Of a stretch of DNA of 64,000 nucleotides, positions 24,868 through 61,294 are shown piece after piece; position 1 is the stretch's first letter, and the number at the start of each line of letters is the position of its first letter. Source of the DNA: Amoebophrya sp. A120 (lineage: Eukaryota > Protista > Dinoflagellata); assembly GCA_905178155.1 (NCBI GenBank), contig CAJINV010000020.1:558001-622000 (forward strand). The letters are read 5' to 3'. The translations under genes and the position numbers were made by a program. The notes under the pieces were generated by a model. The model was not told the origin of the DNA. It saw nothing but the letters and a program-made list of their open reading frames with translations, and did no database searches.

Positions 24868-27790
24868 ATGGCCAAGCTTCGGGGTACCACATTCTCCTCA
24901 TTGACACCAGCAGCCGGTAATGGAAAGCATATTATCGGGGACGACGAGATATTTAGTTACCCACCAGTACTTCTAGGGGGTACAGCTATCCGCAATGTAG
25001 CAACATCAGATTCTTCGACTGCGGCATCCACGGGTACTAGTACGAGAAGCAAGATGCCGGCTGGTGGAGTATTAGGCGCAGGTAGTACCAGTACGTCGAG
25101 CTCCGTGTTGAAAAATGGAGCGAGCGGGGCAACCGGGAACACGAATAAACGTCAGCACCTGGATCCGCTGGACCCGCAAGTGGCTGCGGAAATCCCGTCC
25201 TTCGGCGAATGGTTTGACTGGCAAGAGGACGCGGATATTCTTGCCGACAATGTTGGGGACGAAACTTCAAAGAAGTCCGACTTGCCGGACAGTGTAATGA
25301 AGGAGATCATGCTCTCCTGGAGACTCAGAAAACCGTATGTTTTGTTGAATTCTGTTTCTTAATGAAATTTTTCGTTTCGAGGAGGTGTCGTTGTGCTGAC
25401 CTAAAGAAGTTTTTTGTGGTCCACAACAAACCAAAAATGAGGCTGGAATTATAAAAATGGTGCACTTGTTCGTTCATAAATTAATCACCACCTCCAGGTA
25501 CCTGATCTACTGTTGCATTCTTGGCGTGGCGTCCTTCGCTCTGCTCCTATTGACCGCGTATTCCAACATGTCCAGAAGCACGCAACAGGGAGGAGGTGCT
25601 GGTGCTGGCACCGGTACAACTGTTAGCGCGGTGGAACAACAGCAGCACCAGTCCTCCACCTCCAGCAATATTAAACTGCAGCCACACTACCACTGGGCAC
25701 TGGAGCTGGCGGAGATTATCATCGGCCTTTGCCTGGTCGTGGAAACGCTCGTCACCTGGTACACCCTGGGCAACCGCGCCTTCTTCGCGTCCCGGTGGTG
25801 CAGGTTCGATTTCGCGGTCAGCTTGGGGACCACGTGGATCGTATGAATTGTAAAAATGTCTGGGTGTGGTTCTGGAAGATTGCCAGATTTGTCATGCAGG
25901 TTTTCCATGACCCATGAGGTCTCGTATGTAGGACCCAGCGTGACAGATTCTGCGAGACCTTTCTAATGCCTGCTAACCTGCATGGGAAACTGCCTCTCGA
26001 TTAGGTCAAAAGTGCACAGCTTTTGGCAATCACGCAACACAGTTTTTTGCCTGATTCAGATTTAGCATGACAAGTCGCAACCATCCAGATCCAGACATGT
26101 TTGTAGTTGATAGATCGTGTTGCTGGAGTCCTGGGACCGGTTTGATTTCATCGAGGAGTACTTTGAAATGCCGATTTTGATCCTGCGGTTCGGCCTGCAA
26201 CCGCTGCGGTTGATCCAGACCGCGCACATTATCCGCAAAGCGAGGCAGATGCAAATCACGCAAAACAGCACACGGATTTTCTGGGAAAAGCTGCCCACGG
26301 AAGAGCCGCACTTTTCTTCGTCAACATCATCCTCTTCGGCGATGCATTCAGCCTCGTCGGGGATGAACAACAACAAAACGCTTTTCCGCGGCATGATCGG
26401 CGCGAAGTTTTTCTCTTCTGCTGGAGACGCGTCCTATGAGTACGAGCAGGTCGTTCCTGGGAACTCCAGTGGCAGACACGCGCCCAGCGACGTAGAGCCG
26501 GATGGCACGGGGCGGAGTCTGTTTTCCGCGACATCTGCATCAAGTGCTGGTCAGCACAAAAATAACTACCACCGAGGTCAACAACATCTGTTCAGCGACC
26601 ACCACGATATTACGAGGAGTGCGTCCTCCAGTAAGGACTCGCTTTCGACGCACCAGAGTCATGTGGGAAAAATTGTGGAGCTGCAAGAGGTAGTTGTGTC
26701 GTCAGCTTCCACTCCCCCAACGGTGGGCCCTGCTTCTTCTTCAAAAGGTGGCTTTTTTCTTGGCAGTTCAAGTTCTTCTGCTGGTGCAACTTCTACTGCA
26801 AGAAACAACAACGCTAAAGTAGAACACTACTCGTTTTCAGGTCCGGGGCCGTTCTTGAGCGGCGGCATCGAACACCAGGATCTCCTCGGGGCGGGGTCAG
26901 CTTCGAGTCCGGTGCAAGCTGAGCAGGACGACGGGCAGCACTGCAGCTTCCGGGCGTTTTTACCCGCGCTCATCGAGTTTCTGCCCCTGACGCTGCGGTT
27001 CGCAGAGTGGAGGTTACTTTTCAAGCCCCAAGTCCACGGGTTTTCGCACTTTCGCTTTCTCAAACTGCTGGAGGAGCACGACGGGGCGGTGGTGCTGCTG
27101 GTGCGCGACTCGCAAGGCTGCGTGTTCGGTGCATTCACCGAGCGGCTGAAACCACACTCGGAGCACAGGGAGCTCTCCTTTGTGTTTACATTTGGGAAAC
27201 AAGATACTAGTTTAGCTTCACCTCCGGGATCTACATCGTCCACCAACAGTCGCGTAAGTAGCGGCCGGCGCCAGCAGCACGCACACTTGAGTATCGAGAT
27301 CGAGGATGATAGCGGAGATACTACAGGAGCTACGTCTAGTAGTAGGCCTCCCGCAGCAACAGTCGCTTCTGATTCATTTCATACGACCGCGCCGGCGCTG
27401 CCTGGAAGTCCGCAGTTTGTCGCCGCCAGCCTGTTGAAGACCAACAAGAATTTTTCCCCGGGTACTAGTACTTCCTTCCTTCCGGGAGACCACCAAAATG
27501 CTGCATTCGCGCCGAGAATCCGCGTCGGATTCTACAACAGCGTGCCCGACCTCACGTCGAGTGCTTCGCAAAATCGCGTGGTCGGCCGAAGCACTTCCAA
27601 GGGAAACGAGCTACCGGCGGTCCTCTTCGAAGAGTCTCTGTTGTGCTTCGGGGAGGCCCTGATCCTGCAGATCGACCATTTGCTGCGCGGTGCGTCCAAG
27701 CCCTGCGCAGCGTACGGACTGAGCGAGGCCCTGACGGCGACGCAAGACTTCGTCATCCAAGACCTTGAGCTGTGGCGGTTCGAGAACTAG
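24868..27790 (+). CDS. Voltage-sensor-like 4-TM domain fused to a C-terminal TLDc domain; exons 24868-25334, 25498-25841, 26118-27790
   Basis: GT-AG intron 25335-25497 and introner 25842-26112. TM motifs LCLVVE, FFASRWCRFDFAV, LILRFGLQPLRL. TLDc motifs WRLLF..HGFS, VLLVRDSQGCVFGAF, SFVFTF, G.SKPC.AY, FVIQDLELW. Confidence 0.8.
25842..26112. mobile_element. Introner element, family A, inverted relative to 18245-18554
   Basis: tatgaattgtaaaaatgtctgg ... ccagacatgtttgtagttgata; direct repeat gatcg; interior is the reverse complement of the 18245 copy's interior. Confidence 0.9.
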
Positions 27791-28631: not shown

Positions 28632-29434
28632 ATGTTGTCTCGTTTTCTCTCTTCAGCCTCCCGACCAGGAGGGCCGTCGCTGCGCTCGTTGCAGCTGCCC
28701 TTCGGGACGAATGGTGCTAATTTTACCGCCCGGTCCGCCGCGTCCAGGGAGGCAGTGTTGCGGTACTTGAAGCAGACGAGCGACGGTGCGGCGAAGCGCT
28801 TTTTTGCCTCCGCCGAGGCCCGGGCGCACAGCGGACAGGTGCTGGGGAATCCGCGGGGGCTGAGCACGTTCGGCGTCGGGTCTCGGGGCGGAAGAAACAG
28901 TCCGGATTGGAGTTTGCACCTGGTGGGCGGTTGCTTCACTGCCTGGTTCGCGATGGGCGGGGTGTCGGGGGTCGCGTTGGGAAACGCAGCGGTCGATGTC
29001 ACCCTGCACGATACCTATTACGTCGTCGGACACTTCCACATTATCATGGTATAGATACGAGTAAGTGAACTTCTTCTACGAATGCGAATCAATCTACAAA
29101 CACGTTTTGTCTACTGGTACAGCTACAGTAGTTCGCTGCAGGAGACGGAGATTACAGCGACAAGAAATTATTCGCGGACGTTCCATCATGTTAGTTATAG
29201 TTTGTCGAATGACGTGGTTTGTGGTTAACTCACTGTGCACGACATGGCCTTGCTGATTCAAATAACCCCCAGGTGAGTACCATCGCCCTGGCTATCGGGC
29301 TTGCCAACGCCGCAATTTTCGGGCCGGCAATCACGGTTTCAGCGGCGCGCGCTCTACCAACCACCACCAAGCGTGTGACGAGCCATCTTTTGGCCAAAGG
29401 TGCGAAAGGCGTAAACGGAATTCCCAAGATTTAG
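28632..29434 (+). CDS. cox1: Nucleus-encoded cytochrome c oxidase subunit 1 fragment (helices IX-X) with mitochondrial presequence; exons 28632-29048, 29273-29434
   Basis: [32 protein letters not shown] matches the COX1 signature GG.TG..L....[14 protein letters not shown]-terminus [11 protein letters not shown] is R/S-rich. Inferred GT-AG intron 29049-29272 continues the helix (HFHIIM|[11 protein letters not shown]). Confidence 0.88.
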
Positions 29435-30242
29435 CTGGATCCTACTTCAACTTCTAGGTCGTGTATGACACTTCTGACCCGACAAGCTGCCTATCGTAAA
29501 GCTCAAATAAAGCAGAAGGCGGAAGTCTGAGTTATCGTGCTCTGTAGTTGTACCACCACACCTGCTTCCGAGATCATATTAGATGTGGATTCAACGGACG
29601 CGAAGTCGAAAAAAAAAACAACTGAAACTGATTACCCTAGATGAAGTGCCTTCCCCATTTTTGGGGTAGAAATGAAGTACATGTAGTACCCTGGTGCACA
29701 AGATTTTAGCAGATGAGGCATTGTGATGTTTATGTCTTCACGCGGCCGCGGCGCTCCCAGTTGTTCATGTTCATTTTCAGCCAAGGTCAAAAGACAAGCA
29801 ACCGCCAGAGTACTTTTCTATTAGTCTTAATAGTTCTTTCATCTAGTTGTGTGTACATCATGTTGCGGCCCGATGAAGAACTACCCACATTTATCGGGGC
29901 TCTCATCTCTCCACTAGAATTCTTTCCTCGCCCACTTCTGTGGCTTAACGATCTTCACTTTTTTAGGAGCCCCACCCTGATTGTACATAAATTACCACAT
30001 GATTCTTCTTGGACATCATCACATGCAGGGTCGTGGTGGGATGTGATTTGCAGCTAGTACATCATCTTCTTCGTGGTCATTCCTTGCAGAGGGGTATTAC
30101 TTATAACACGTCTGAGGTTCATCTTGCAGCTGTGCCTTAAGTAGCACTCACATGCGGTCACTTTGCTGCCCGTTGCAGCCGTGTCGTGGTCTTCTTTCTT
30201 GGCAAAAATATTCCTGAACTTATCTCATCAAAATAAAACACA

Positions 30243-33200
30243 ATGCCGCTCGCCGACGCCCCCAGGGAGTTTAAATCTGGCACACTTGTGCTGCGCAACA
30301 AGCGAGACGAAAAGAATGGCAAGGTGGACAACTGGCCGGCGACACACGGTGTGCGCGGGTACGACTTCCTCCAGGTGTACGATAAAACGCCTTGTGTGGT
30401 GAGAATGGTGGTGAACAAACAGATATGCATTGCAAAAGTAATGTCGTACTCGTATAATATGTAAATTGCACCTATGGCTATGCAGCATGACAAATCGAAA
30501 TCTATTTCCTTTCCTGAATATATAGCATTTGAATTTTCTCCTGCTAGTGCGATACTTTTGCAACGCATACCAGACGAAGCTTCCACTCGAAGTCGGGCCA
30601 TGGCACGAGGGGAAAGGACTAAAAGGACGATCTACGTCATTGAAGGACAATATATTTAAAGAATGGGGAAGATACATAAAGAATGGTGTAGGGTTGACAA
30701 ATGGGAAATGGTCATTGGATCAACCTTCCACACTATTCCGAATGCGCAAAGAGACGCAACGGTACGTCCGAGAGAAGTTTCCACACCCGTTCCGGTTATC
30801 CTGTGCAAAAGTATCGCATTCGTATAAATGCAAGTCTTGCATTACAAATTTTTTTCTCAAGGTAAATCTGCATTACAAATTTCAATTCTCATGCTGAGGG
30901 AATTTGTCATGCATTTATACGTCGATCGCAAGAGAACTACGTGAATCGTATGGAAAGTTAAAGAGCGTAAAAGTTAAAAAGTTATGTTGTAGTTCTTGTC
31001 GTAGCGTCTTTTCGTATCTCTCAGTTCTCACTTCGGTCTACGTTGCAGAATCTATCATAAAAATTGGCTCGGTAAAAGATGTACGTGAAACCAAAATGGA
31101 AAAGAAAGCAAATTTCAATTGAGCAAACATGTTGAAATCGGTTCGTATCGTGTGCTCGTAGTCCGGAAAGGTAGTTCGTCTCGTCTCTTAGGAATTTTTT
31201 ACTTATTCACACCTCTGCCAGGTGTCAGCCCTGTGCCTACCAAATGGTAGGGGGAGGGCTGTTCTGTTTTTTGCGCTTTTTTGGGCATCATCTGTTGAAG
31301 TCTGCGATGGGAGTTTCCGCGGGTTTAGGTGAGCTAGCACCCACGGAGCTTTACCCGCTGGACCAGGATTCTCCCATGCGAGCACCTTCTTCGTTCCTCC
31401 AGGCTTTTCTCGGCGTCCTTGGTCGGACGCCCCTGTTCTTGGTTGAAGTTGGACCCCGTGTGGCGGTAGCAGCTTCTTCTTTGCCCTGCCTTAGTAGCTC
31501 GAGCCTCGTTGCACTTCGTAAACTCTGCTCTTCGTAAAAGTGAAGTCGTCTGGTGCTTTGTTGTCTTACCTTAGTACGGTAACCCCTTTCCCCGCCTGTG
31601 TAAGAAGCATTAGCTTCCCATGTCCCCTTGCGTTTCTCGGCTAAACAGTTATTCGGTTATTCTTCTTCTAATGTTTACTTCAGTTGCTTTTCATTTATCA
31701 GCTTTAGTAGGGCATGATGCCAAAAGGGACGGACTGCCCTTAGAGCTCCCATGTCATGAAGAGTGCGCTATTGCTGTGGTGGCAGTAATTAAGCGGCTCT
31801 ACATTCTTCCTTTCAAAAAATCACAGGGATTAAGTGAAAGCATTTCGTTCGTCGTACCCAAAGTCTCTCGACCTGTCGTACCGTTACACGTTTAAAGTTG
31901 CGTCATTTTTAGTACCGTGAAAATCGTAGACCGTGACAAAGGGCAACTAAAGAATTATATCTAAAAAGGACCACTGCGAACAAAGCGTTAAAGGGTAAAT
32001 TGCATTTGCCGGGTCGTACAAGCACCGACGGGTCGTATACACACCGGGTCAAAACGGGTGGTATGTAAGCCGAATGAGACGTGGATTTGGAACAACATCT
32101 ACCGCCTACGACCATACCAAGAGCAGTTTTTTCCACGACAAGTATCATCACGCCACAAATGACATCTACGGAACCACATGTGACTGCTGCGGCACAGCAT
32201 CATTTCGACGCACCGAACCAAGCACAGGACGATATTTCTAACCCCTTACCGATCCTACCTTCACCACCACCTGCACCTTATCTACATCGGGAAAGCCCGC
32301 GCTGTCTCCCTCTCACAACACAGGAGCAACCTCGGTCGACTAGGCAGTGCTCCGGAGTCCGGGCCTCAGTTTCAAATAACGGATTGAGATCTTCCTGGGC
32401 ACCGCTTGATTCTCTTCGCACGGATTGGAAAAAAGGTTCTTGCCAAGATGGCGATGGACAGGTAACAACACCTCGTCCACAACCTGCGACACGCCTACCG
32501 ATTCGCTTCTTGTCATCGGATTCACAAGTGGATCGTTGCAGCTGGAGTACAGGAAAGGAGTATTGGGCGTTCGGTTGGGGTACTCTCCGCTGGCATTACG
32601 ACTTCTACCGCGGGACGTGGCGGTACGAAGACTCGATTGATCGGGCTAACCACGAGCTACACTACTGGGAGGATGCGGGCTTTGTGGTCGAAAACGGAGA
32701 AATTCGGCCACGCTCGTAGTTCTACGTTTTACAAACTCTAGCTGGTTTACAGCTCAAAATTAGATAGAAGTGCGCTAACACTGGGCTTTAAAATGGTTTC
32801 ATCCGACATGCGACCCCAGCCTGACACTCAGCGCCAAAACCAGATTACGTCTAGCCCGAATGCTGCAGACTTCCCAGAGGTTATTAGCATTACACCTTCG
32901 TCCTCCGCATTACAGCTTCTGAAAAAACCATCCAGACCGCTGCTGCCAAACCCTCCTCGCGAAAACTTCCTCCACGCCGTGAGCAACTCGATAGTAGCTG
33001 TAGCGGAATACTGTGATGTGCAACAATTGTACACGAGCGACATCTTCGCCATTAAAACTGAGTACAAGAGCGAAGAGCTGCCGGTGGCCTGGATGGCGGA
33101 TTTCACGATACCGCTTCAGATGAAGTATGCGTCATTCAAAAAACACGTCCTCGACCCGAATGCTTGGTGCTCTGATCGCCTTAGGCCCGACGTTTTTACT

Positions 33201-36200
33201 CTCGACAGAGAGCACATGCTCCAGTGCTGTCGAGCGGCCAAGGGAAACCCGTGCAGCCTTTGCTCGTCGGCCTCCCCTGATCGTTTTCTACAAGTAAACG
33301 GCAAGCTACTAGAAGTCCGGGCAAGAGAACAAAGGTCGTGTGACGAGGCCGGTAACACTAGCCTCATCTACCTGCGCCGGTGCAGTTGCGGGTTGACGTA
33401 CGTAGGTAAGGCCCATACGGGTGCGGGGGCCGGAACGCGCTTCCACGCACACGCCAATAACGGTGAACGGGTAACGCTGGAATCCGAGGGTCGCCCGATG
33501 TACGATCATCAGAGGTTGTACTTGAGCCATGCGGTTACCACGGACATCAGTCGGAGAGGCCCGGGGCGGTGAAGTCGACTAAATATTTTCTATATTTTGC
33601 GGGATTTTTGAAAAATGAAAAGAACGGGGAGTGCGGCGCTGCCTGCGGCGCCACGGTTGGCAGGGACGCCATGTGTCCGGGCACCGCGGGGGTTTGGGCG
33701 CATTGCCTCCCGTCCGTGTGCCCGGCGGCAGTGTTTCCCCCCTGGTGTTCTCGCGTTGCCTTGCGAAAAAATTAAAATTTAAAAATTGGCAGCGTTTTGA
33801 GTGGTATTGCGTGTGCTAGGAGTTTCCCAATCCCGCAGCCTCGTGGGTTCCTCTGTGTTCATTTCCGATCGCACACACCGGGGAAGGTGTGCGTGGTGGG
33901 TTGTCCGTATTCTGCCTCCCGGGCGTGAGGTTGTTTCCAACATCGCGCTGACTTTCGTGAGTCAGTGCGATTTTGGGAAGGGATTGGGATATGTTTGAGT
34001 TGTCCGTCGGAAGGAAAGGTCGTGGGGCTTCGCGACCGACCTTCGGCAAGATCCGCGGTCGGGGTCGCGCAACGACCTTTCCTGCGGGAAAACCACCTTC
34101 CGGACCAACTCCGTTTTGATTTAGAGTCACCGGGGGGTGCATTTTCGGGAACGATTCCCGTGTTTTCGGGAATTTCGCCCGGTTTCGGGGTGGTCTGCTA
34201 AACCGTTTTCCCGCACGGTTTAGCAGGCTCATTTAGCATGCTGATTTAGCATGCGATTTAGCATGCTGATTTAGCATGCCAGATAGAGGGGTATTTAGAG
34301 CCCCCATTTAGCACCCCCATTTAGCACCCCCATTTAGAGGGGTGCATTTAGAGCCCCCATTTAGCACCCCCATTTAGAAGGGCTCGATTTAGAGCCCCCA
34401 TTTAGCACCCCCATTTAGAAGGGGTCGATTTAGAGCCCCCATTTAGCACCCCCATTTAGAGTGCCATTTAGAGCGCTTTTGGGCAGGTGCCCACCTCGTC
34501 TGCGAAATCGGCCCCATGATTTGCTTCTCCCCACCCCGCGACGCTTCTCCGGGTTTTTCCCCACCCGCAGTGCGTAGGGGGCCGCGCCGGAGTTTCTCCT
34601 ATGTCTTCTCTTCCTCGGTCCCACACCATTTGCCTCTGTGTTCCCCATTTCGTCTTTGCCTTTTTCCTTCTCGCCCCTTTTCAATTGAGGCGCCGTCCGC
34701 ATATTCCCCGGGAAGGCCGTTTTTGAAAAATCCCGCAAAATTTAGAAGCGATTTAGCAGCCACCACCGCCCCGGCCCCTCCGCCTGACGGACATCTTGTT
34801 CAGCATGGACAAAGTGGAAGCAAACCGCACGGCTACGCTTCCAGACGGCTCCACGATGTCACAAATAGATGCGTGGGAGTCGTTTTGGATAATCGTACTC
34901 CGGACGTATCTACCATGGGGTTTCAACTTAGAATTCAAGGACGTCACACATCCTTCGGCCCCTCGACGCCGCCCGAACCCCGAAGACTGCTCCAGCATGT
35001 GCCGACTTCTCTCCGAACAAGGGGACGTACTAAAAGTGCAGCGGCTACAACGTAACCTCAAGCGCTACGTGGCAGCGAAGCACGCGGGCAACCCAAACTT
35101 CTTCCCGACTGCTTTTCCTCCTTCCCGACACGGTGCAGTTGGTTCCGACCAGCATGACACCCACCAGAAGCGGTCACAGAGCGGACTCCTCGCGGACGCA
35201 TCGGGAATCCAGTGCACACAAGATGTAGAATGCACACTCCCCGGCGTGCAGTGCACGCAAGATGAGGGATTCCTACGCCCGAGCATACCGTGCCCGCAAG
35301 AGGAAGGGATTCTTTGTACGCAAGAGCGCGACGATCTGCTACCGGTTAGCTCCCATCCGTTGAAAACTGATGGCCAGTTGGTGGAGTTCTTTGTCGGCAA
35401 ACGCAAAGCACAGCGTGTAGTTTTGGAGGCCCCGGATCTGAAGCGTCGCAGTATAGTTCCTGCGGCCCATCCTCCTCGTTTAAGACCTTGCAGATTGTCT
35501 GACCGGCCTCGATTAGTAGAACTTCCAGCTACAGCGAAGACTCCGTTGCTACCAGTAGACCCGGCAGTAACTCCATCCCGCAAGAGCAGCATGGTTCAAG
35601 AACTTTTTCGCAAAAAGTTCAGTATGGTACGGGGAAGCGAAGATCGGAAAGCGGCGCAAAGCATGATTTTCACCCCGATGGCAAAAGAGTCTCCCCGCCC
35701 AGACCAGTCTAGCGCTCTAGCGGTCGCTTCTTCCACTAACCTCCTTCGCAAGCACCCAGACGAGGCATACACCACGAAACTTCCCAGCAACAGCTCCGAA
35801 GTTAAGAAGATACTTCTTGCAATAGTCTGGCTATTTTTTGCACTGGACCCCCCGCAGGACTTCGCGTCATCAGGACGGTGGCTGCCGGTGAAGTCGTGGC
35901 ATATCGGGGCTGCCAAGTTCAATACAATCTCTTGGCTCCTGAAGATTATTGCGGGCTGCAGCAAACAACTTCTCCGAGCGCTACGCCTCCACCTAACGAC
36001 GGCTTACGTGCTTCCGCAGCAGCAGTTGTTTTTGCTTCAGGAATTAGTAGAAAGCCGATTACGACTTACGAAAGTCGGTGGGGAAAAACAGTCGCGGGAC
36101 GGTAAAAAAGCTGTTATATTCTTCTACCACAACAAAGTCGTCGACGTGCTCAACTTGCGGTCCACCTTCCGCCAGGTGTTGAATGATAGATTCCTCGCAT

Positions 36201-39200
36201 TTACATACGGACCGCCCGTATGTTTAACTACATTCAACCTCCGACTCAAGGCCATCCCTCATGCATGCAGCGAGCTGAAGTGCGCGTGTGCGGATTATCG
36301 CCGCTACTTCACAGACGGCTGTACATGGGGAGGGCATCTTGCCATGCCAGCGACGGCAGACAACATACAGCTGCTGTGTGGACCGACCCTGGACTCTGTA
36401 GCGTCATCCAAGGTCGCGCTATTAATGAGACCAAAATTCCGGGTGGAGCAAAAGTTTTCGGCCACTAAACTGCTTGAACGCGTCAACATCGAAGAGCAAG
36501 AGTTGATTCAAGATGTAAGACACTTCTTCTGGTACAACACGGTGCCAGATGGTGCAGACAAGCAGGAAGAAGTGGACTGGAACACCGCTGACGGTTCTGC
36601 CGCTCCCGTTCCCGTCCCGGATGCTAATGGTAACGTGTACGACCGTGCTGCTAGCAACACTTTTGAGTGGGGCAAGTTCTCTACGGCATTCGAGATCGTT
36701 CGCAGTTTGCAACAGCTTTTTGTGTTCGGGTACTACGATAAGGCGACATCAACTACCTGGATGATGTGTAAAAGCCTTTACACGGCATTACTGATGGAGG
36801 ATTTGGGGTTAGCCGGCCGCGGGTCTTTCCCAACAGGCACCAGCACGGACTACCACCGGGCGGATTTCGTGCCGGCACCTACGGCACCCTACCAGGATCC
36901 GGCCTTGACCCAAGCTAATCCGATCCTACCTGCGCCCGCTCCTCCATCGGCGTTATCCCCGGGTAACACACCACCCCGAGATGCACTGCCAAGCGCTCAC
37001 TTGATACCAGCTTCCCAGCCTAGTCATGACCGGGGGCAGAACATCCTCCTGGACCCGCCCCGCGGCCTATTCCATGGCACTAGCACCGCGGCACCCTCCC
37101 GCTCGCGAGTTTCTGGCACGCAGTTACAGAAGCCGACCATCAAGCCACCGAGAAGTGGAGCGTCAGTAGTGGTGAGTAATTTTCGTAGTGCCGATTGTCC
37201 GTCTTCGCGGCAGCCTCGCGCGGGTAGTTCTGAAGTAGTGTCGCCTCCGATACTCGATGTCGTTCCGCCCACCTTCTTATCCCCGCAAGCGGCGCCCGGT
37301 AACAGCAGTTCCTCGTCCTCTTACGAACCCCAAGCTAATAGGGGCCTGTATCTAAAACGGAACAAGTACGGGTTGCCGGCATCATCTTCAGATAAAATCG
37401 AAGCACTAGACAGGGATCTAATAGACGAAACGAAAAAGGAACTACATGGCGTGCGGAACCTGATGCAGTTCGTGCTCCGGAAAAGCGAGAAGCTCTTGCA
37501 ACTGGGTAAAGTAAAGTCAACGGACCAGCCCCACGTTTTGTTGCAGGCGAAAATCAAGCTACATGCGGAGATAGATGCGGCCATCGAGATGGCACAAGAC
37601 GAAATGGAAAAAAGCAGGAAGCACACCAAATTACAACAGCAACTAGAACGTGCTGAAGCGGACCGGAAAGCAGTGCAGGCAGAGTTAAAGCAGTGTCTTC
37701 CGAAGTCCTCCGTACCGGTGGCGGCCTCGGTTAACACCCACCATGTCCGCCCGTTTCCCTCGGCACTGTCGGGCCGGCGGCAGTCGTTGCTGTGGAAACT
37801 CAGCACGCACGCCGGATGGAGAGTCATCTCCAGAAGCCTTTTAAAAGGAGTAAAAGGAGTGGGCTGTGCTCTAGATATGCAGCGCGCGGCTAATAGCGGT
37901 CTCGAAAAATTAGCTGTGTTCGACTTGCGGGCGGGGATTACACCTGGCATCACCTTGAAGGCGCTGGACTCGGTCCCGCAAGCCGGCAGCATCGTGGCCT
38001 TCCAGCATCAGAAACTGTATACGTCCACGGCGATTTTGTCCAAGGCCCCAATCCTACAGATGCAGGCTGGTCCAGAGAAATCACAGTGGTTGTCCCCGAT
38101 CTTCGTTTTGTCCAATGCCGCCGTGCAGATACTTTTCCGGGACGAAACGAAGAGGAACTTCTTACAATGGACCGCCGAATCAATTAACTTGGGTCCGTTC
38201 TCTGCCAAGTTAAAAGAGAACCCGCTGCCGGTCACAGTCCTCGATGCCTGGGTCAGCCGACATGAAGTCGCGGAGTTACTGCAAATGGGGATGAACCCGC
38301 ACAACGACCTAAATCCGCCCGCAAACAAAATGTCTAGTTTGCTGCTGGATGTGGACCCCCTTACTGCCTTCGAGATGTGGCTGGACGACGACACGGAGCA
38401 GGGCGAAAACCCACCGCCGGGGGACCTACTCGGGGCAGTTCCCGATCCGAACAGCAACTCCAGTCCAGATGTTCTCCAGCCGGGTCCACTGTTCGAGACG
38501 GCGGTCAACCTGCTGGACGTAGCGGCAGGGGTTGCAGAGGAGCCAGAAGATATGGATTTTCAACCGGAGCAGCAACTTTTGAATAGTATGGAAGTCGCAT
38601 CACAGCATGACTCTTCCTCACGAAATTTACCTAGCACTATTTTGGCAGCCGACGGCAAGATCAACATGGGGCGCTGGGTCGAAGGCCAACATGCTGCACT
38701 AAACATACCGTCGGGCTCTGCCGTGTCAGCCCGATCTGCCCGACCACCAGGTCCCCGCACTCCGTCACCTCGCTCAAGTACGTCTTCATCAAGTTCCGAC
38801 ACTAGCTCCAGCTCGTCTTCAACGCCGTTGTTGTCGGACTCGGAGTCGGACTGGTCACAGCAACCGCCACCGGTGGTTTCTGATCTGGCCAACTTAGCTA
38901 CGCAGATTCCAAACTTAAACTCGAAAGGAAATTGGATTCAACAGGGGGTAGACCATCGGGGTTGTAAAGTTCGACCGTTGCTACCAATTTGGCAGGCACG
39001 GCGCAATTTTTCGTTTTTAAAGTCCGAGTTTCCACCTGCTGATCAGTCGCTGCACGAAGTGTACAGGCCGACAACAGCGGGGCAGATTGATGAAATTGTC
39101 GAGCAGCTTAGCAGCTTCGCCCCGGCTCTGCATGCCCGGGTCAAGCAGAAACAAGCTTCAGCTCACCCGGCGTACTATGCAGTCATCAAGGGCCACAAGG

Positions 39201-42200
39201 CTCCGGCCTACAAGATGCGACTCATCGCAGCAGCTACGGACAAAACGGTCTTGCACGCTCCTGGTAAAGTCTTACACTTGATTCTATCGGCCGTGATGCA
39301 AGAATTCAAATCCCGGGTGTGGCCGGGAGCTTGGAGCGTCGAGAGTTCAGAAGAGGCGCTGTCCCGGGTTACCAAGGGCGGTTTCGCAGCTTTTGACGGT
39401 TATGATTTTGAAAGGTTGTACACGGGCCTCGAACACTCCTTCCTGTGCCACAACCTCCATCAGCTCAATTGCTGCGTCTTCCAGGCCGGGGGCTTCCAAT
39501 CTGTTGTCTTGGGGTACGACCGGAACCGCAAAGGCCCGAATAAAGAATTTGCTTTTCTTTCACGAGACGCTCCTACGTCCTCTTCTTGGTCTCTGTCCGA
39601 TATCGATTCCTTGGTCCGTTGGTGCTGTGCCAGTTGTTACATCGGCATCGCTGACTTGCTATTTTTGCAAGTCCGGGGGATGCCAATGGGCATTACCCCG
39701 GCCCCGCGGATGGCGGATGGCGGGTTGTCTTGGAGTGAATACGTCTTTATCACTTCTCCGGCGGGACAACAGTACCGGTTTTTGCAAATCCTTCGTTACC
39801 TCGACGATTTGCTGTCTCCTATCAGGCTGCCACTCCACCTGATTTATCCCAGAGCGTTAGCGTGCAAGCCTGAAACCCTCGGCACCGTCACGACAACCTT
39901 CTTGGACTTTTTCCTCGACGCTTCCATTCCAAAACGGTTGTTGTACTGTATGTACGACAAAACGAGAACTTTTCCTTTTTATTTGTCTAAGTTTTCCGCT
40001 GCTGCCAGTGCGGTGCACCCCGAAACGCACCAATCGGCTTTTAGTAGTGCGGTCATCAGGGCTTATAAAAGGAACTATCTAGTGGTTCACTTCCTGCGGG
40101 ATGTTGTCGAACTTCTAGTTAGGTTCACGTTGAACGGCACTTACCAAAGGTCGTTCCCGGTCAAGGCGTGCCGGCTGCTGGTGTCCCGCCACGAAATTCC
40201 AAAGTGGTTCACCACCGAAAAACTGGTGTCCACCATGGGGGATTGGATGAAGCAGATGCAGACTGAAACTCAGGCGATTCTGCACCCGTCTTGGCAACAG
40301 TTTCGGCAGAACAGTTCCGGTCCGGTTGCTCCGGCGACAGTCAGGTAAACAGTAATAAACAAGTAATCAGGACAAGGTCGAGCTTTTCCCTCTTTCGAAG
40401 ATTGAAGCACGCTTTCGAAGATTAACGCACGGTTGCAGATAGTGAACAAAACTCGCGATCTTATCCTTCGGGGAAGACAGGGTCTGAAGAAGCTCGATAA
40501 GGGTGAAAGTTGGTTTAAAGTAAAGCTTAAAGTTCAAACTACAAAGCACAAACTTGAGCTTCTACCTCCTGTAGAGTAGGCACCAGTCTAGACTAAGTAA
40601 AGTTAGCACAGAACTCGAGTAGTTCACAGTGCCAAAGGTAAAGTGTGTCTTTTGTTGACTTCCTGTTTTGTTGATGACTATCCTCGTTTTTACTTCCCAA
40701 TATTAAAGTAGATAAAGTAAAATCTTAGTAAGCAGGACAGCGTCAAACTTCTTCACAATTTTTACTGGTAGAGCCGGGAAAGGATTTGGAGGTAGGCGCC
40801 CTGCTACCAACAGGCAGCAGGTCAAAAACAAAAAAATATTCCGATAGCGAAAGACGCCACGGGAAACCTCAGGTAATCCATCCGTCGTAGATGCAATGCA
40901 GTGCTCCCGATCGTCCCCATCCTTGTTGTATTTTGTGTACGAGTCTTGGTAAACACGAATGTCACGTCCAAATAGTTCAAATTAAACTTGTTTTCACCGT
41001 ATAATTATACCTTATTACAGAAGCCAAAGAGTAAGCCATACACTTTCGTTATTATTTTTTCCTTTACACAAGCAGCTAAACACACTTTTTCAGGTTCGTT
41101 TAACTGTCCGTCCGCGAGGCCAAAGCCGCATTTTCAAGCAATTAACATTTACGAAATCACTAGTTTTATCTCCGTCTAGTTACTTCTTTTCCAGCTTTTG
41201 ACGCCTACACATTCATAATTAACTTTTTTGCGTTACGCTGAAGACATAAAGTTCACTGTGCCTCTCGTGAAGTTGGCGACAAACAACTAATAGCTTAACA
41301 CTGTACATATTTGACTATAGAACCAGGAGGAGCGTCGTTGAAGAAAACAATACAAAGCACGCTGGTCACCATTAAAGTTCTTGCCAAGGAACTAGTGTTG
41401 TCGAGGTCAATGCCGTAGAGTATCGAAATTCGCAGAGGATGGGCCGTGGCACGAAAGGGAAATAATCGCTAGTAGTCAGGATGTCGGTGGGTCGTGTAAA
41501 CTGATCTATCTTCGTCTATGATTATTATTATTGACAACCTAGCCTTCAAATAAAGAACAACGGGTACTAAATTACATCCACCGCTACGCTGTAGTAGATA
41601 AAAGCTATGGCTAGGCACCTTTTTACACAAGGTCGATACCGCGCGAAAGTATTAAGGTTTTCGGACTAAGAGATCTAGACTGGGCAGTAGCAGAAGAGCG
41701 TTATTTTTTAAGGACTAATTGCCAAAAGTTGTTTTTACACGGTCCCGTCGCCGTCTCGAGTATCGGGCATTTCGGAAGATTACGTGGCGTGGCAATCACC
41801 GCCTCCCCACAGACACCGCAGACCGGCCCCGCTGTTAGCCGAGCTTGGACCGGATCCGACGCTACTTCGAGCCCTACGTTTCCCAGAACAGTTACCCGGC
41901 AGAATCTCGCTCGACACAGCCTACACTCACGACATCCCACTTCCCTTCCACTCGCACGAATCCGGCCACGGGTGGTTCTCCGAAAGTAATTTTTACGGTA
42001 AACACCTGTTTTCAACCCCTCCGGAGGTACGTATCCGTAGGGAAGTTTTACGACAAGAACAGGCGAGGGTGGGGGCGTTTAACAAAGGACTAGCATCTCC
42101 GGACTGGTCAATCAGCTCCCCGTACCGAGATTACCAAAGCGGGGTGAAACCAGTACAAGCGCGTGCAGTTCGATTGACTACGGGTACTTCTAACCCGTTT

Positions 42201-44980
42201 TTACCGTCGTCACCAGAGAGGTTGCTAGTCCGCAGGGGTTGGTCAACCATCCAGATAGAAAAGGAGTGCTTCGGGTCCCCGTGCGCATTACGGGCAACGT
42301 CCTCGAAACAAAGAAGATAACCGCGCATCATCACTTTCTCAACACGATGGCACTTGCCCATAATAACGGGTCCATCTTCGCATTCAACCTGCAAGAGTGC
42401 CGGAGGATGCTAGCAGTGACGAACAACGCAGCTCCTGACACGCCTAGGCCACCGGTGCAGCTGCAGCCAGATTCAGCTTGCTCCTACCAATCCGCAAGAG
42501 AGTCACGGATCAGCAGCGAACGGTCGTTCGGAGAAAATGTCTGCGTGGTGTTGGATTTTGATAGGGACTTTCCTGTGCCGAACTACAACAATCCCGTGCG
42601 GTTCATCCCCAACAACCCGTTTGCTTGGGAGGGCCTTGCGGGTGCCCGCATGGACGAGGGAGTGGCGGAGCAGGATATAGTTTTACAAACGGCCCGCTCC
42701 CCGTTCTCCGATATCGAGCTGCTGGATTTTCCACCAAGTCCGCCATTTGGTCACAGCCCTTGCAGATACTTCGCCTACCTGCAACAGTTCCAAGAGGACA
42801 TGGACAACTTGCGGGCAGAACCAGAACCAGAACCGTGCAACCCCTTCCTGATGTCGCCCAGATCGCCGCTGCTTACAAATCCGTCGATCTTCCAAATCGA
42901 GCAGATCGAGCTCGATACTACTGGATCGTTGCCGTATACCCGCTACCCGAACCCCAGCCCCGAGAGCCTGAGCACATACGGCCTGTATGATCTCGACCTC
43001 CCTGTCCATCACCAGTTGGGCTCACCGCACCAGGCAACGCTGCAAATCAACTTTTCACAGGATTGCCAGCAGTTCCTGCAGTTCCATGACAACTTGGACA
43101 CCAACAACATTTTACGCCAAAACCGTATGCACTTGACGTTCTTGCAGGGTGACAATGCAGGCACGAACCCGAATCGCATTAGGGGGGACAACCAGGGGGA
43201 AAACCAGAGACGCACTTTCTCCCCATCCCCAACCCCATCGGAACTCTCACTGATGGCGGCCGGGCGCCTGTAAGGAAGAATAAATTACACGGATGCCCTT
43301 ATACCGGCTTTCCTCCACAAGCACCGGCGCGACACGACATCTTAACCGAAAGCGGCTCCATCTGCTACATCAACGCCTACACTTGAACTACTTCATCATC
43401 TACTTGTTACCATCAGTTTACAGCAAACGAACTACCACGGTATCAACCAGCAGTACAACGACACGCATATTCCGATACGACATCCAGAACGACTTCAAGT
43501 AGCATTTCTAAAACGACTTCGACCGACGAACCAAACACGACCATCATGATCAACAGCGGCATCTAATAGCATCTTCACTTTCTTCTGGTTTTCTTTTTTC
43601 ATTTTTCATTCTGAATCTGTATTGGCAATGGTAACTGCATATCTGACATCAGAACTGACAACGATAAATGCACAGTATAATGCGTACTTTCTATGTATAC
43701 TAAGGTCTTGGATATTACTGCCCAGAATGAAAAAAGAACAAAGAAAGTGATATTAGTTTCTTGGTTTTGTTCGCAGTCCTATCTATGTGGTCCTTCATTG
43801 CATGAGAGTTAACATGCTTTGAAATAACAATAAAAAGCCCTCCAGGTTGAAGAGAACTACGTGAATCGTATGGAAAGTTAAAGAGCGTAAAAGTTAAAAA
43901 GTTATGTTGTAGTTCTTGTCGTAGCGTCTTTTCGTATCTCTCAGTTCTCACTTCGGTCTACGTTGCAGAATCTATCATAAAAATTGGCTCGGTAAAAGAT
44001 GTACGTGAAACCAAAATGGAAAAGAAAGCAAATTTCAATTGAGCAAACATGTTGAAATCGGTTCGTGTCGTGTGCTCGTAGTCCGGAAAGGTAGTTCGTC
44101 TCGTCTCTTAGGAATTTTTTACTTATTCACACCTCTGCCAGGTGTCAGCCCTGTGCCTACCAAATGGTAGGGGGAGGGCTGTTCTGTTTTTTGCGCTTTT
44201 TTGGGCATCATCTGTTGAAGTCTGCGATGGGAGTTTCCGCGGGTTTAGGTGAGCTAGCACCCACGGAGCTTTACCCGCTGGACCAGGATTCTCCCATGCG
44301 AGCACCTTCTTCGTTCCTCCAGGCTTTTCTCGGCGTCCTTGGTCGGACGCCCCTGTTCTTGGTTGAAGTTGGACCCCGTGTGGCGGTAGCAGCTTCTTCT
44401 TTGCCCTGCCTTAGTAGCTCGAGCCTCGTTGCACTTCGTAAACTCTGCTCTTCGTAAAAGTGAAGTCGTCTGGTGCTTTGTTGTCTTACCTTAGTACGGT
44501 AACCCCTTTCCCCGCCTGTGTAAGAAGCATTAGCTTCCCATGTCCCCTTGCGTTTCTCGGCTAAACAGTTATTCGGTTATTCTTCTTCTAATGTTTACTT
44601 CAGTTGCTTTTCATTTATCAGTTTTAGTAGGGCATGATGCCAAAAGGGACGGACTGCCCTTAGAACTCCCATGTCATGCATTTATACGAGTGCGGTACTT
44701 TTGCAGTTCATACCGGTACCCGTTCCACGACATCACCCAGGATGAAAACTATCTGAAGGAGCAGCTCCGCGGCCAGGACCAGGACTGTTTCTACAGGCTG
44801 GGATACCACCTCCAGTACCAGTACGTGGTTTCGGCTGCGGAGGACCCGGAGCAAAACCTTGTGCAACGGTGGAGCGACTACCACGAAGTAGATGGGGGGT
44901 TTGGCCCGGGCGAGATGGTCCAGGTTCGAGATTTCGACATGTTCAGGTGGGCATTCGGGACGCGGTCCGGATGGGTATAA
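30243..44980 (+). CDS. Hypothetical protein whose second intron is 13.9 kb; exons 30243-30423, 30575-30796, 44718-44980
   Basis: Spliced frame is open: MPLADAPREF...VVNKQ|TKLPLEV...FPHPFR|YPFHDITQDEN...TRSGWV*. Confidence 0.75.
30424..30569. mobile_element. Introner element, family B
   Basis: tatgcattgcaaaagta ... tacttttgcaacgcata; repeat acaga/ccaga. Confidence 0.87.
30930..31758 (+). repeat. 5' pseudo-LTR of the Penelope-like element
   Basis: Matches 43850-44678; three substitutions seen by eye (near 31147, 31702 and 31745). Confidence 0.95.
32159..32719 (+). CDS. Possible accessory ORF upstream of the EN-RT ORF
   Basis: Co-oriented open frame, Pro-rich N-terminus and Trp/Tyr-rich C-terminus; no family recognised. 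Confidence 0.4.
   Translation: MTSTEPHVTAAAQHHFDAPNQAQDDISNPLPILPSPPPAPYLHRESPRCLPLTTQEQPRSTRQCSGVRASVSNNGLRSSWAPLDSLRTDWKKGSCQDGDGQVTTPRPQPATRLPIRFLSSDSQVDRCSWSTGKEYWAFGWGTLRWHYDFYRGTWRYEDSIDRANHELHYWEDAGFVVENGEIRPRS
32793..40348 (+). CDS. GIY-YIG endonuclease-reverse transcriptase polyprotein (~2100 aa), interrupted by MITE 33548-34786
   Basis: EN: LIYLRRCSCGLTYVGK...TRFHAH, completed after the MITE by ESFWIIVLRTYLPWGFN. CxC..GH and YDKA..MCKSLY motifs. RT: YAVIKGHK..MRLIAA, DFERLYT, QVRGMPMG, RYLDD, TFLD, YDK. Confidence 0.88.
33548..34786. mobile_element. Non-autonomous hAT-type TIR element (MITE)
   Basis: TIR cagtcggagaggcccggggcggtg ... caccgccccggcccctccgcctg; 8-bp TSD acggacat at 33540-33547 and 34787-34794. 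Confidence 0.9.
34219..34472. repeat. ATTTAG-based minisatellite inside the MITE
   Basis: Repeating atttagcatgctg, then atttagagccccc/atttagcaccccc units. Confidence 0.9.
42239..43273 (+). CDS. Possible accessory ORF downstream of the RT, inside the retroelement
   Basis: 344-codon co-oriented frame (first ATG ~42347), Pro/Gln/Asn-rich; no family recognised. Confidence 0.5.
   Translation: MVNHPDRKGVLRVPVRITGNVLETKKITAHHHFLNTMALAHNNGSIFAFNLQECRRMLAVTNNAAPDTPRPPVQLQPDSACSYQSARESRISSERSFGENVCVVLDFDRDFPVPNYNNPVRFIPNNPFAWEGLAGARMDEGVAEQDIVLQTARSPFSDIELLDFPPSPPFGHSPCRYFAYLQQFQEDMDNLRAEPEPEPCNPFLMSPRSPLLTNPSIFQIEQIELDTTGSLPYTRYPNPSPESLSTYGLYDLDLPVHHQLGSPHQATLQINFSQDCQQFLQFHDNLDTNNILRQNRMHLTFLQGDNAGTNPNRIRGDNQGENQRRTFSPSPTPSELSLMAAGRL
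43850..44678 (+). repeat. 3' pseudo-LTR of the Penelope-like element
   Basis: Direct repeat of 30930-31758 (offset 12920). Confidence 0.95.
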
Positions 44981-45534
44981 CAAATGAAAATAAATATAGG
45001 ACGCTCCATCACAGCCTCTGTTCAAGTAGAACATCAAAGCAAGGGCAAGAACTTCTGACTCTTGTTAATTGAGATTGAAAGTAAAATTATCCAAAAACAC
45101 TTGCCTTCTTGTCCATCTTCATCCTTGCTTCTTCGGGTTCTAGGCTACTACATTTTTCTGATCTTCATGATGATGATTTGTACCAAAATTTACAACCAAA
45201 AAAGCTGTCGGACAGCGAGTACCAAATCGTGGAATTGTATGAAAACGCCGAACGCTATCACAATCGTGTGTCATAGCGATCGCATTCCGAATAGACTGAG
45301 ATGAGAAAGCGTCCCCTTGAATGTGGTCAGTTTTATTTCATGCCTGCATGAAGAACATGAAGATCAACACATTACTTGTGTGCCTCGGTGTGACGCGTTG
45401 AGCAAAAACTTGTACCGCAGAAGATTGCTGCACTTCTACTTATAGCCGTGTCTTTATGTTTGTGAATGTGATGCAAAGTTGCGCCGCAATGTGAATAAAC
45501 TAACAGTGGTAGCGTCTATTGTCGTTGCGATAAA

Positions 45535-46272
45535 GTGGCTATTCAAGTGTGGTGCTCCGAGAAGCGCGATTGGATTCCCTGCGGCCGCGACTACATCCGT
45601 CATGACTCCGACTTGTGCGCCGACGGTAGTATTCTCGACTGGGTCACAAAAAATCCGAAGATGAACGAAAAAACAAAAAGCCAAAACAGCAGTACGTCAG
45701 CATCTTCATCCTCATCTTTTTCTACAACTGCTTCAAGAAGTGCTGGTGCTTCAGTTCTTCACAACAAGAACTCTTCTGGTCCACCTCCTGCTCGTCCTCA
45801 CGGTTCACAGGAGGCCGCAGTTGTAGAACCTGCTTCCAGTTCAAGTTCTTCTACTTCTTCCTTTTCGACATCTTCTCCGTCGCAGAAGGAGCTGATGAGG
45901 AAGCTGATGAGGTCGCTGTACGAAAGCCCGCGACTGGTCACGAAACTCGAGGAAAAGTTTGAGAAGCTGAAGGCTGCTGAGGCGGCCGGAGGGGGGCAGG
46001 AGCAACATTTGTACAAGGGCTGGTCTGTCCGCCTGATGGACCACGTGATCAAGCAGTACAAAAAAGAGAAGCCGCGGGACTACCAAATGGCGACAGCAGC
46101 GGAAAACCTATACAAGCACTGGAGACACCACCCAGGCGCCCGGGCAGAGGTCGAGGCCGCGGTCGCGAAGAAGGAAAGTTTGCGCATCGCCGGGACGACG
46201 TTCTCTTTCGAACAGTGCCAATTTGTACTGCGCGAAATCGACAAGAAGGAGGGAAAAATGTTGGAGAACTAG
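45535..46272 (+). CDS. Hypothetical protein, Ser-rich linker then helical charged C-terminus; start uncertain
   Basis: 245-codon ORF with GC3-rich codon usage like neighbouring genes. Confidence 0.6.
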   Translation: MAIQVWCSEKRDWIPCGRDYIRHDSDLCADGSILDWVTKNPKMNEKTKSQNSSTSASSSSSFSTTASRSAGASVLHNKNSSGPPPARPHGSQEAAVVEPASSSSSSTSSFSTSSPSQKELMRKLMRSLYESPRLVTKLEEKFEKLKAAEAAGGGQEQHLYKGWSVRLMDHVIKQYKKEKPRDYQMATAAENLYKHWRHHPGARAEVEAAVAKKESLRIAGTTFSFEQCQFVLREIDKKEGKMLEN

Positions 46273-60168: not shown

Positions 60169-61294
60169 TTACAAATCGTCATCCAAGTTGACGCCGCCCA
60201 TGTTGGCCCCCAATTCCTTCACGTTCTCCAGCCGCGTGTGCAGCGCGAGGAGGTGCTCGGATTGCAAAAGCCCCCACGGCTGGATCAAATTGAAGTTGTC
60301 CTCCGCGATCTTGGCGTTACCTGTTATTTGGATCATATACGAAATCTGTCATGCGCATTTCTTCCAAAATCCTTGCTGTGTGCATGTTGTTTGTGGGGTT
60401 TGGTGTTGCGAGCATGTTTTTCAAAAAATTTGTCATGCGCAAAACCCGGCCGCCCCCTTTGGCAAATCTAACATGCAAAAACCGGCAGGCGTGGCTTGTT
60501 TGCGAAGATCGAAAAAGGGTTAAGAAATGCACTGCACCATCGCGGCAGGCAGTAAAAAACCGATTCTCCGCGTCCTTGGCCAAGTGCTCGAGCAGATGCT
60601 TGCAGATTTTCATCGACCACTCTTCGAGACCGTCCAGGGCAGTAATCTTTTCCAGGACATTCACCCGCAACTCCTGCCGGTACTCGTCCCCGTAGCGCAA
60701 CACTTTCAGGACCACGTCGGAGAATTTTAACGCAGCTTCCTCCTCTTGTAGCAGTTTCGTGCCCAGCGGCTTCGCATTGTCAAAAATCGGCATTAACTGA
60801 GCCACCTCGGCAGCGGTTTCGGTGTAGATCGCGGCCCCCTGGTTGAAGTTACGTGTGTTGGCCATGACCCGGGCACGGAGCGTCTGGAAGGATTTGCTCT
60901 TTTTCTTCAACTCCATCTCGACGTAGTGGCTCGCGACCTTGAGCGTTTTCGTTCCGCGCGGCAGGACCGGGCGGCCTCCGGCCGACAGCACGCGCACGTC
61001 GGCAAAAGCGGCAAGGTCTTTAGCCATGGGGATGATGATCTCGAGCGCGCGGGCCGCCCCGAGGCAGTGCGTGTCAATACTTTTCTTCACTTGCTCAGCA
61101 CGGGTCTCCACCTTACAAGGGAAAACGGGTAATTGAAACGGGATAGCGACTTTTCCAAAACTTTTACTTTGACTTTTGGCAAAGTCGCTATTTTGATCGT
61201 CGGCAATCCATGCTTTGCGAAAATTGTTTGGACCGTGCTGCCTGTTGCTGGTAAGTCCGCACTTTGGGAGTGGCAGAGCATGAAAGGGCGGCAC
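60169..61294 (-). CDS. Antisense hypothetical gene inside the large insertion; intron at ~60321-60537; start unknown
   Basis: 325-codon ORF with helical, protein-like composition. A second exon, ..NAKIAEDNFNLIQPWGLLQSEHLLALHTRLENVKELGANMGGVNLDDDL*, can be joined in frame. Confidence 0.5.

Follow-up and report, generated by a model that had tools for sequence, protein, structure and literature searches.

Introduction

Among the Penelope-like elements (PLEs) whose GIY-YIG endonuclease (EN) lies ahead of the reverse transcriptase (RT), Craig et al. (PMC8557442) distinguish Naiad, which occurs in animals and has a zinc-finger nuclease, from Chlamys, which occurs in algae and protists and lacks the zinc fingers; the origin of the nuclease is left open (this and the other papers cited are drawn on in part, and all comparisons refer to those parts). 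Here we describe an element in a 64,000-nt stretch of the genome of the parasitic dinoflagellate Amoebophrya sp. A120 (contig CAJINV010000020.1, positions 558,001 to 622,000), hereafter the window. We read it, with good though not complete confidence, as an 11.7-kb PLE with its nuclease ahead of the RT, present as a single copy interrupted by a miniature inverted-repeat transposable element (MITE). It is likely a member of a branch within the Naiad/Chlamys group that is specific to Amoebophrya, and target-primed reverse transcription is the likely route by which it entered the repeated intron of a host gene.

Naiad elements measure 3.4-4.4 kb, encode ~1,000 aa and have animal hosts and a (TA)n target (PMC8557442). 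The window element shares with them an N-terminal GIY-YIG nuclease with a linker C..CxxC and a CCHH motif, the CxC and DKA motifs, the insertion in the fingers domain (IFD), a partial-tandem pseudo-long terminal repeat (pLTR) and the lack of a canonical hammerhead, but it has a non-animal host, an intron-repeat target, a CX7CxxC linker and two large inserts. Chlamys elements resemble it in their protist and algal hosts, their long, varied structure and their insertions between the DK motif and RT1; they occasionally carry an upstream open reading frame (ORF) without domains (Chlamys-1_bBra), and their ORFs reach ~1,800 aa. They differ in a nuclease without both zinc fingers, in a length of 3.3-8.2 kb and in that no alveolate host is listed for them in that account (PMC8557442). 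The window element thus falls outside strict Chlamys by its zinc fingers and outside strict Naiad by its host and size, and fits the motifs of the joint clade. With 11.7 kb and 2,102 aa it exceeds the range listed there for nuclease-bearing PLEs; a first-pass annotation of the window remarked that typical Penelope ORFs are much shorter.

Two other systems invite comparison. Terminons/Athena (PMC6431247) are also giant PLEs with accessory and coiled-coil ORFs, but their RT is EN-deficient, they are telomeric, end in a 3′ hammerhead and reach up to 40 kb, whereas the window element has a fused nuclease and an internal site. The Poseidon element PAc of Anolis (PMC11167929) shares the GIY-YIG nuclease, the telomerase-like RT, the tandem pLTR and a predicted long-helix dimer, and is the template for the mechanism proposed below; its nuclease is C-terminal, it has a hammerhead and it primes without target homology, whereas the nuclease described here is N-terminal. 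No such elements were described in the literature searched on PLEs in Amoebophrya, dinoflagellates, alveolates and Symbiodiniaceae (Repbase and subscription journals lay outside this scope), and 'Penelope' has 0 occurrences in the Amoebophrya genome paper. Relative to the accounts cited, the novelty lies in the size, in a host among the alveolates and in a double zinc-finger nuclease of Naiad type outside animals; the DK-RT1 insertion site itself is not new. An alveolate branch with a zinc-finger nuclease breaks the split between Naiad and Chlamys and adds a taxon for testing scenarios of the nuclease's origin.

Results

Removal of a MITE rebuilds a 2,102-aa reading frame

The ORFs 32742-33572 (ATG at 32793) and 34757-40348 flank a non-autonomous element with terminal inverted repeats (TIRs), which are imperfect (58 nt, 81%) and are bordered by an exact 8-bp duplication (33540-33547 = 34787-34794); when equal-length flanks of 5-13 bp were compared, they matched at 8 only. 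The depth of run X1 over this element was 2-4 times that of its flanks. As proposed at first pass, removal of 33548-34794 fuses the two ORFs, joining VTTDI to LFSMD in a frame of 6,309 nt that codes for 2,102 aa plus the stop, with 0 internal stops. A second non-autonomous TIR element in the window (57205-59705, 2,501 bp) has the same kind of ends, an 8-bp duplication and internal short tandem repeats, and supports the MITE reading. We take the interrupting element to be of hAT type; it resembles hAT-type non-autonomous elements and MITEs in its 8-bp duplication, its CAG-initiated inverted ends and the lack of a long ORF, and differs in having no identified cognate transposase. Apart from this interruption of its ORF the copy is undamaged, which makes the MITE the later arrival; it probably landed after the retrotransposon and killed this copy.

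That the copy is still alive, the host splicing the MITE from the RNA and restoring the frame, strikes us as very improbable. Ten GT/GC..AG pairs by the MITE ends would restore a frame of 2,086-2,106 aa, Amoebophrya splices introners bounded by inverted and direct repeats (PMC7789003) and the ORF is without decay, but such pairs are expected by chance, recency explains the undecayed ORF, and a 1.2-kb element with an 8-bp duplication is unlike the introners with their 3-5-nt direct repeats.

Neither Pfam, searched with the split ORFs, nor a PDB sequence search returned a match. Against a profile built from 45 full-length relatives, the joined nuclease scored 41.0 bits in one block (aa 140-302), compared to 22.2 and 7.5 bits for the halves alone. 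In a control over aa 1-330, the true join scored 45.6 bits, and 200 shuffled C-terminal halves gave a mean of 22.0 and a maximum of 25.7, confirming that MITE removal joins two halves of a GIY-YIG domain. Once joined, the R, H, E and N residues of PLE nucleases stand in the same ORF as the RT (first half: C146, C154xxC157, C183, C197, C199, YVG, R216, H220 and H239). The zinc fingers of Naiad are both present, as the linker C146, C154, C157, whose CX7 spacing is a variant of CX2-5CxxC, and as the CCHH set C197, C199, H220, H239; among the 45 full-length matches the linker motif occurs in 38 and the CCHH motif in all 45. Naiad and Neptune have both motifs and Chlamys has not (Fig. S2 of PMC8557442), so the nuclease is of Naiad/Neptune type and not of Chlamys type, a point that the first-pass annotation missed.

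Two pLTRs and a target-site duplication delimit the element

The first-pass annotation stopped at the ORF and missed the ends of the element, namely its pLTRs, its target duplication and the extent of the unit, which is 12,920 bp long, or 11,673 bp without the MITE (Table 1). The two pLTRs differ by 3 mismatches in 829 bp (99.6% identity), and one contig of run X1 bridges the left pLTR and the 5′ start of the unit. The last 7 bases of the element are the first 7 of the 17-bp target duplication, which we count as 10-17 bp, and a loose end of X1 behind 30921 looks like the sequence from 44689 on. A partial tandem with pLTRs and a target duplication of variable length are both traits of PLEs, the former being a known arrangement (PMC8557442). 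The near-identity of the pLTRs and an ORF without a stop indicate that the insertion of this copy is recent. Two other identities were rejected: integrase and gag of an LTR retrotransposon were not recognised, nuclease and RT being of PLE type, and a domesticated gene is excluded by the pLTRs, the target duplication and the break by the MITE.

An optional tail of 30-40 bp is another trait of PLEs, and the element offers one copy in which to look for it; a contig of run X7 shares only 31722-31757 with the window, suggesting further loci with this 3′ end. A depth of 113 in X1, together with variant contigs near 31450 (31298-31746), suggests that the genome holds more short copies of the 3′ half of the pLTR. 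At 31923 and 31954, X1 has T, not A, at full depth, which may reflect window errors or strain differences.

The element occupies an introner-like intron and is single-copy

Three exons of the host gene, an inferred gene model, join in frame into a 221-aa ORF, and the element sits in an inverted-repeat arm of the 152-nt repeated intron between the second and third. Five other full-length copies of the 152-nt empty site occur in the window, with matches of 75-84%, and the summed depth of this repeat exceeds 30,000 in X1. Amoebophrya is known to have introns that carry inverted repeats and short direct repeats (PMC7789003). In a genome invaded by introns, an introner arm may be a safe haven for insertion, as the site of this element suggests. 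Many host ORFs across the window are also broken by introner-like repeats with inverted arms (for example 980-1127, 10110-10265, 10509-10667, 11405-11549 and 55023-55176).

Copy number was judged by contig depth. Depth in X1 was ~19-23 over the ORF compared to 22.5 on the flank, the X1 contigs continue unbroken into both MITE ends, and no MITE-free joint was found among the 15 of 44 joints listed; from these we conclude that the element is single-copy. Scans of viral contigs and of metagenome contigs returned no related loci.

Several points weigh against the outline given so far. None of the X1 and X7 contigs listed spans the outer junction of the left pLTR; at one of the three positions where the pLTRs differ, X1 has the letter of the left copy, and this mismatch was not reproduced; and the window may itself stem from the sample behind run X1. 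As neither a MITE-free copy nor a transcript of the element was seen, the 2,102-aa protein is reconstructed from DNA. Raw RNA runs X4 and X5 contributed 0 and 1 read, too few to serve as a test. The case moreover concerns a single dead copy, inserts at the DK-RT1 site have a precedent, and the role given to insert 2 below is one that we infer.

Table 1. Features of the element and of its insertion site (window coordinates).
Feature	Position	Strand	Remarks
Host gene exon 1, from ATG	30243..30423	+	Inferred gene model
Host gene exon 2, upstream of element-bearing intron	30575..30796	+	X7 contig = 30571-30796, 0 differences
Introner-like repeated intron, left part (insertion target)	30797..30921	.	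5-nt direct repeat at borders, inverted-repeat arms
Left target-site duplication	30905..30921	+	17 bp; followed by 8 additional bases, 30922-30929
Left pLTR	30930..31758	+	829 bp; 5′-truncated tandem copy of the 3′ end
Upstream 213-codon open frame	32078..32719	+	Trp-rich C-terminus; possible accessory ORF; length reached by 2/300 Markov shuffles
Main ORF, 5′ part	32793..33547	+	N-terminal extension and first nuclease half (aa 140 on)
Non-autonomous TIR element, MITE-like	33548..34786	.	1,239 bp; internal 13/41-bp tandem repeats
Second nuclease half	34795..34945	+	E280, N296
Insert 1 (aa 303-630)	34946..35929	+	Four short CTQD-like repeats, Pro/Ser-rich parts
Naiad/Chlamys diagnostic region	35930..36814	+	CxC+H 36278-36337, PKF 36431, DKA helix (D at 36737)
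Insert 2, DK helix to RT1 (aa 926-1671)	36815..39052	+	746 aa
Coiled-coil hairpin in insert 2	37385..37696	+	Helices in AlphaFold2 model, pLDDT 60-74; predicted self-association
220-aa segment of globular composition	37706..38374	+	AlphaFold2 pLDDT ~30 without alignment
Telomerase-like RT with IFD and thumb	39053..40348	+	ORF stop at 40348; D1789, D1922, D1923 intact
202-codon open frame without Met	41712..42320	+	Overlaps next frame; length reached by 5/300 shuffles
359-codon open frame, 3′ region	42194..43273	+	Possible accessory/captured ORF; 0/300 shuffles as long
Right pLTR, 3′ end of unit	43850..44678	+	
Predicted 3′-terminal RNA hairpin	44620..44667	+	Left copy 31700-31747
Right target-site duplication	44672..44688	+	
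Rest of interrupted intron	44689..44717	.	
Host gene exon 3, to stop	44718..44980	+	

The protein has the motifs of the Naiad/Chlamys clade and groups with Amoebophrya proteins

Three profile blocks are colinear along the protein: the nuclease, the diagnostic region (aa 631-925, 18.6 bits) and the RT block (aa 1672-2058, 189.5 bits). The nuclease is thus N-terminal to the RT, as in Naiad and Chlamys, and the order EN, CxC, DKA, RT given at first pass holds. The diagnostic region, in which a DK-motif profile scored 19.3 bits (E 3e-6), contains CxC at aa 748-750, H766, PKF at aa 798 (with the G of GxKF/Y replaced) and DKA at aa 900. Within the RT, KGHK of RT1 lies at 39188 and YLDD at 39797, and the three catalytic aspartates are invariant in a 114-row alignment. 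The IFD is present, the span from motif A to motif B being 91 compared to a median of 85 in 124 matches; counted by eye from Fig. S1 of PMC8557442, it is 84 in Naiad-Amil and 61 in Penelope. The RT model (predicted local distance difference test, pLDDT, 87.7), built on an alignment of PLE-type matches, has a predicted fold most like that of telomerase RT, a PLE trait: the first 11 Foldseek and the first 4 VIA matches are telomerases (Z 17.4, root-mean-square deviation 4.7 over 372 aa), and the best non-telomerase reached Z 13.6.

A search of 1.84 billion representatives with aa 903-2102 gave 382 matches, and in all 150 listed the best stretch lies in the RT. Among these 150, GIY-YIG precedes the RT in 56 and follows it in 0; in matches of at least 880 aa, the nuclease is N-terminal in 45 of 46. 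Thirty matches were looked up, and those with an organism name include six Amoebophrya proteins and one from Diplonema; five of the six best named matches are from Amoebophrya, as is P0034. Weak, word-seeded searches with the RT among proteins of 1,024-3,261 aa, and with the alignment among proteins of 1,317-3,760 aa, returned no relatives. The window RT, P0001, P0002, P0003, P0034 and one ENA protein form a single 6-row branch with 100/100 support in a hand-picked tree of 46 rows, and the Amoebophrya branch has a Shimodaira-Hasegawa support of 99 in a tree of 130 rows (130 of 151 sequences, an RT piece of at least 280 aa being required); both trees show it as a separate long branch. These relatives and motifs agree with the first-pass assignment to a Naiad/Chlamys-related Penelope clade with a dinoflagellate type of host, and the closest relatives and the kind of intron both indicate Amoebophrya. 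A caution against this placement is that both trees are unrooted and contain no canonical PLE, TERT or published Chlamys sequences.

The branch could alternatively be a Naiad gained horizontally from a marine animal, instead of an ancient protist lineage in which the zinc-finger nuclease was kept or gained; we consider such a transfer possible though somewhat unlikely. The nuclease, the DKA motif and the IFD length are all Naiad-like, and most RT matches are Naiad-like proteins of ~950 aa. Yet the branch is deep, with a long stem (0.67) and identities of 25-39% among its members, and occurs in three Amoebophrya strains; a midpoint-rooted tree, a weak guide, does not nest it in any starred Naiad-like group.

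Among the relatives, P0174/P0149 of Diplonema papillatum, and likewise P0014, are N-terminal-EN PLE proteins that carry a ubiquitin-specific protease (USP) domain at the C-terminus; the nuclease of P0174 is of Chlamys type and lacks zinc fingers. Neither a Diplonema host nor a C-terminal USP domain figures in the parts of the Craig et al. 2021 account of PLEs used here (PMC8557442).

Two inserts account for ~1,000 extra residues

The enzyme carries ~1,000 extra residues in two inserts. The first-pass annotation had reported several hundred residues between DKA and the RT core and ascribed them to one large inserted domain. The insertion is real, the distance from DK to RT1 being ~815 aa compared to a median of 74 in 77 relatives (61-81 in 72 of the 77), and 9 profile positions stretch over 747 aa. 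It need not be a single domain, however: insert 2 is a mosaic, about half of it Pro/Ser-rich, made up of a Pro/Ser-rich part (aa 926-1100), a two-helix hairpin (~1116-1219), a further segment (1223-1445) and a Pro/Ser/acidic part (1446-1671). Insert 1, which follows the nuclease, had been overlooked; the nuclease-to-CxC distance is 454 compared to a median of 203 in 42 relatives, some 250-270 aa longer. Arg/Lys patches were noticed in insert 1 by eye only (compare the KR-rich block between nuclease and RT of Naiad).

Insert 2 is coding, with 0 stops in 746 codons (chance ~5e-13), 29 and 28 stops in the other forward frames and a codon-position GC equal to that of the RT. A reading of insert 2 (or of insert 1) as a retained intron, whose splicing would leave an ordinary protein of ~1,100-1,350 aa, is hardly credible, since the open frame and the lack of introner arms speak against it, even though PLEs keep introns and the host lineage uses non-canonical ones.

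Could insert 2 be an accident private to this copy or its closest kin, either a fragment captured from a gene or an element nested in frame, which has no role and perhaps cripples the RT? No homolog was found at E<0.01 among the 150 matches listed of 382, a weak word-seeded search with aa 1090-1470 among proteins of 209-667 aa returned no relatives, the family libraries gave no match, and the copy is alone. In the Amoebophrya protein P0002, the 315 aa before the RT block lack a DK motif and are Pro/Ser-rich too, but this stretch does not align with insert 2 (best E 0.47) and may be a gene-model artefact. The lack of homologs and of an alignment to P0002 favours a private accident. Nevertheless, we find a private accident improbable: the 746 codons are open with the codon-position GC of the RT, no repeat pair borders insert 2, the site is a known Chlamys insertion point at which insertions are already listed (PMC8557442), P0002 likewise lacks a DK motif near RT1, and the insert was already in place when the copy recently transposed. 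At the level of sequence there is thus a hint, though not more, of a lineage-wide insert in the Amoebophrya branch. The element also shows what stretch is possible in the DK-RT1 loop, which adjoins the region common with telomerase.

As to what insert 2 might do, a single-sequence AlphaFold2 model of aa 1090-1470 was poor (mean pLDDT 42.8), and a fold search with it retrieved generic helical hairpins only (best Z 9.4, root-mean-square deviation 2.7, 95 aligned). Modelled as a homodimer, the hairpin (aa 1098-1228) scored 0.33 compared to 0.00 for the best control, with at least 95% of contacts agreeing across runs and pLDDT of at least 72. In comparison, 21 of 30 microbial homodimers and 17 of 29 eukaryotic ones attained the mark for a dimer, whereas none of the single chains did (0 of 23 and 0 of 30, respectively). 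A long helix is the predicted dimer interface of the Poseidon PLE (PMC11167929). On the other side, the score is just 0.01 over the mark, one of three runs fell under it (0.31), coiled coils pair easily, and of the eukaryotic pairs without an older solved relative only 1 of 7 passed. On these models, the hairpin may be a self-association module, a proposition to which we give slightly less than an even chance.

The 220-aa orphan segment might instead be a DUF8422-like domain captured as an accessory, whether enzyme or binding module, and the very purpose of the insert; this is compatible with the reading preferred here. Its top atlas scores were 0.90-0.91, with one family set common to 29 of 30 matches; its composition is globular, its GC3 of 0.68 is the highest of the ORF, and accessory domains are common in the Naiad/Chlamys group, Chlamys elements carrying PHD, SAP or Josephin and relatives of the element USP domains. 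We still think it unlikely, as shared features number 119-123 of 256 when true members mostly have at least 170, a score of 0.9 came up in 4-10 of 100 trials with shuffled proteins, just 34-46% of cluster members are covered by the family, and AlphaFold2 gave no fold for the segment. DUF8422 was not mentioned in the literature searched. A SET-like or ULP-like identity of the segment, considered by eye, was dropped, as it had no Pfam support. Within the PLE reading, both inserts would loop out at insertion-tolerant positions, leaving the enzyme core able to fold, and insert 2 would most likely be a flexible linker with a self-association module and an orphan domain.

Discussion

A model for insertion

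From the habits of the group and from in vitro work on PAc (PMC11167929), we infer a first nick, the copying of a tandem RNA by target priming and a second, staggered nick. The RNA of the element would be bound by the 2,102-aa protein that it encodes, perhaps through the 3′ hairpin, and the zinc-finger GIY-YIG nuclease of that protein would nick the inverted-repeat arm of the intron. The freed 3′ end would then prime the RT, possibly via the 7-nt match of the element end with the target, and the RT would copy the full unit and 829 nt of its tandem partner, giving the left pLTR. A staggered second nick would produce the 10-17-bp duplication. Against a part for the 7-nt match stands PAc, the sole PLE assayed in vitro according to that account, which primes without target homology (PMC11167929); the match may therefore be due to chance.

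The predicted terminal hairpin offers a lead to a signal for RNA recognition and to an origin of the pLTRs from slightly different templates. Two of the three pLTR mismatches turn a C-G pair into U-A, a compensatory change, and random mismatch triples contain a base pair at a rate of ~0.002 (a post hoc estimate). Its stability speaks against such a role, being ordinary (equalled by 52 and 58 of 500 shuffles), as does its disappearance when at least 500 nt are folded. Its loop contains a partial hammerhead-like core. No hammerhead ribozyme was matched by Rfam in 29000-46000, and the hammerhead core pattern occurs in neither pLTR and 6 times in the window compared to 5.2 by chance; the element in this respect follows Naiad and Chlamys, which have no canonical hammerhead.

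All of these features might be combined into a larger claim, that of an old third branch of N-terminal-nuclease PLEs in Amoebophrya, uniting the double zinc-finger nuclease of Naiad with a gigantism like that of Chlamys, a conserved module for both oligomerisation and an accessory function in the N-terminal region of the RT, extra ORFs, a ribozyme-free 3′ hairpin and introner-arm targeting that permits harmless splicing from host genes. We hold this full version to be distinctly unlikely; if true, the Naiad-type nuclease would predate animals or have moved between kingdoms.

Other open frames and neighbouring features

Beside the main ORF, the unit contains three open frames (Table 1). The upstream frame had no family match at the curated or E<0.05 level, and neither the 202-codon nor the 359-codon frame had a family match. 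Over 41712-43273 the frames overlap as 0 and -1, and G-TTT-TTA at 42197-42203, just past the upstream stop of the -1 frame, is a possible slippery site.

Elsewhere in the window lie ordinary host genes, among them an SNF2 helicase (2087-5206), a histone deacetylase (9036-10439) and a TLDc protein (26114-27790). The GC-rich end of the window (60317-64000), with a 420-aa minus-strand ORF without a family match and a 43-nt inverted repeat (63584-63801), is possibly another mobile element.

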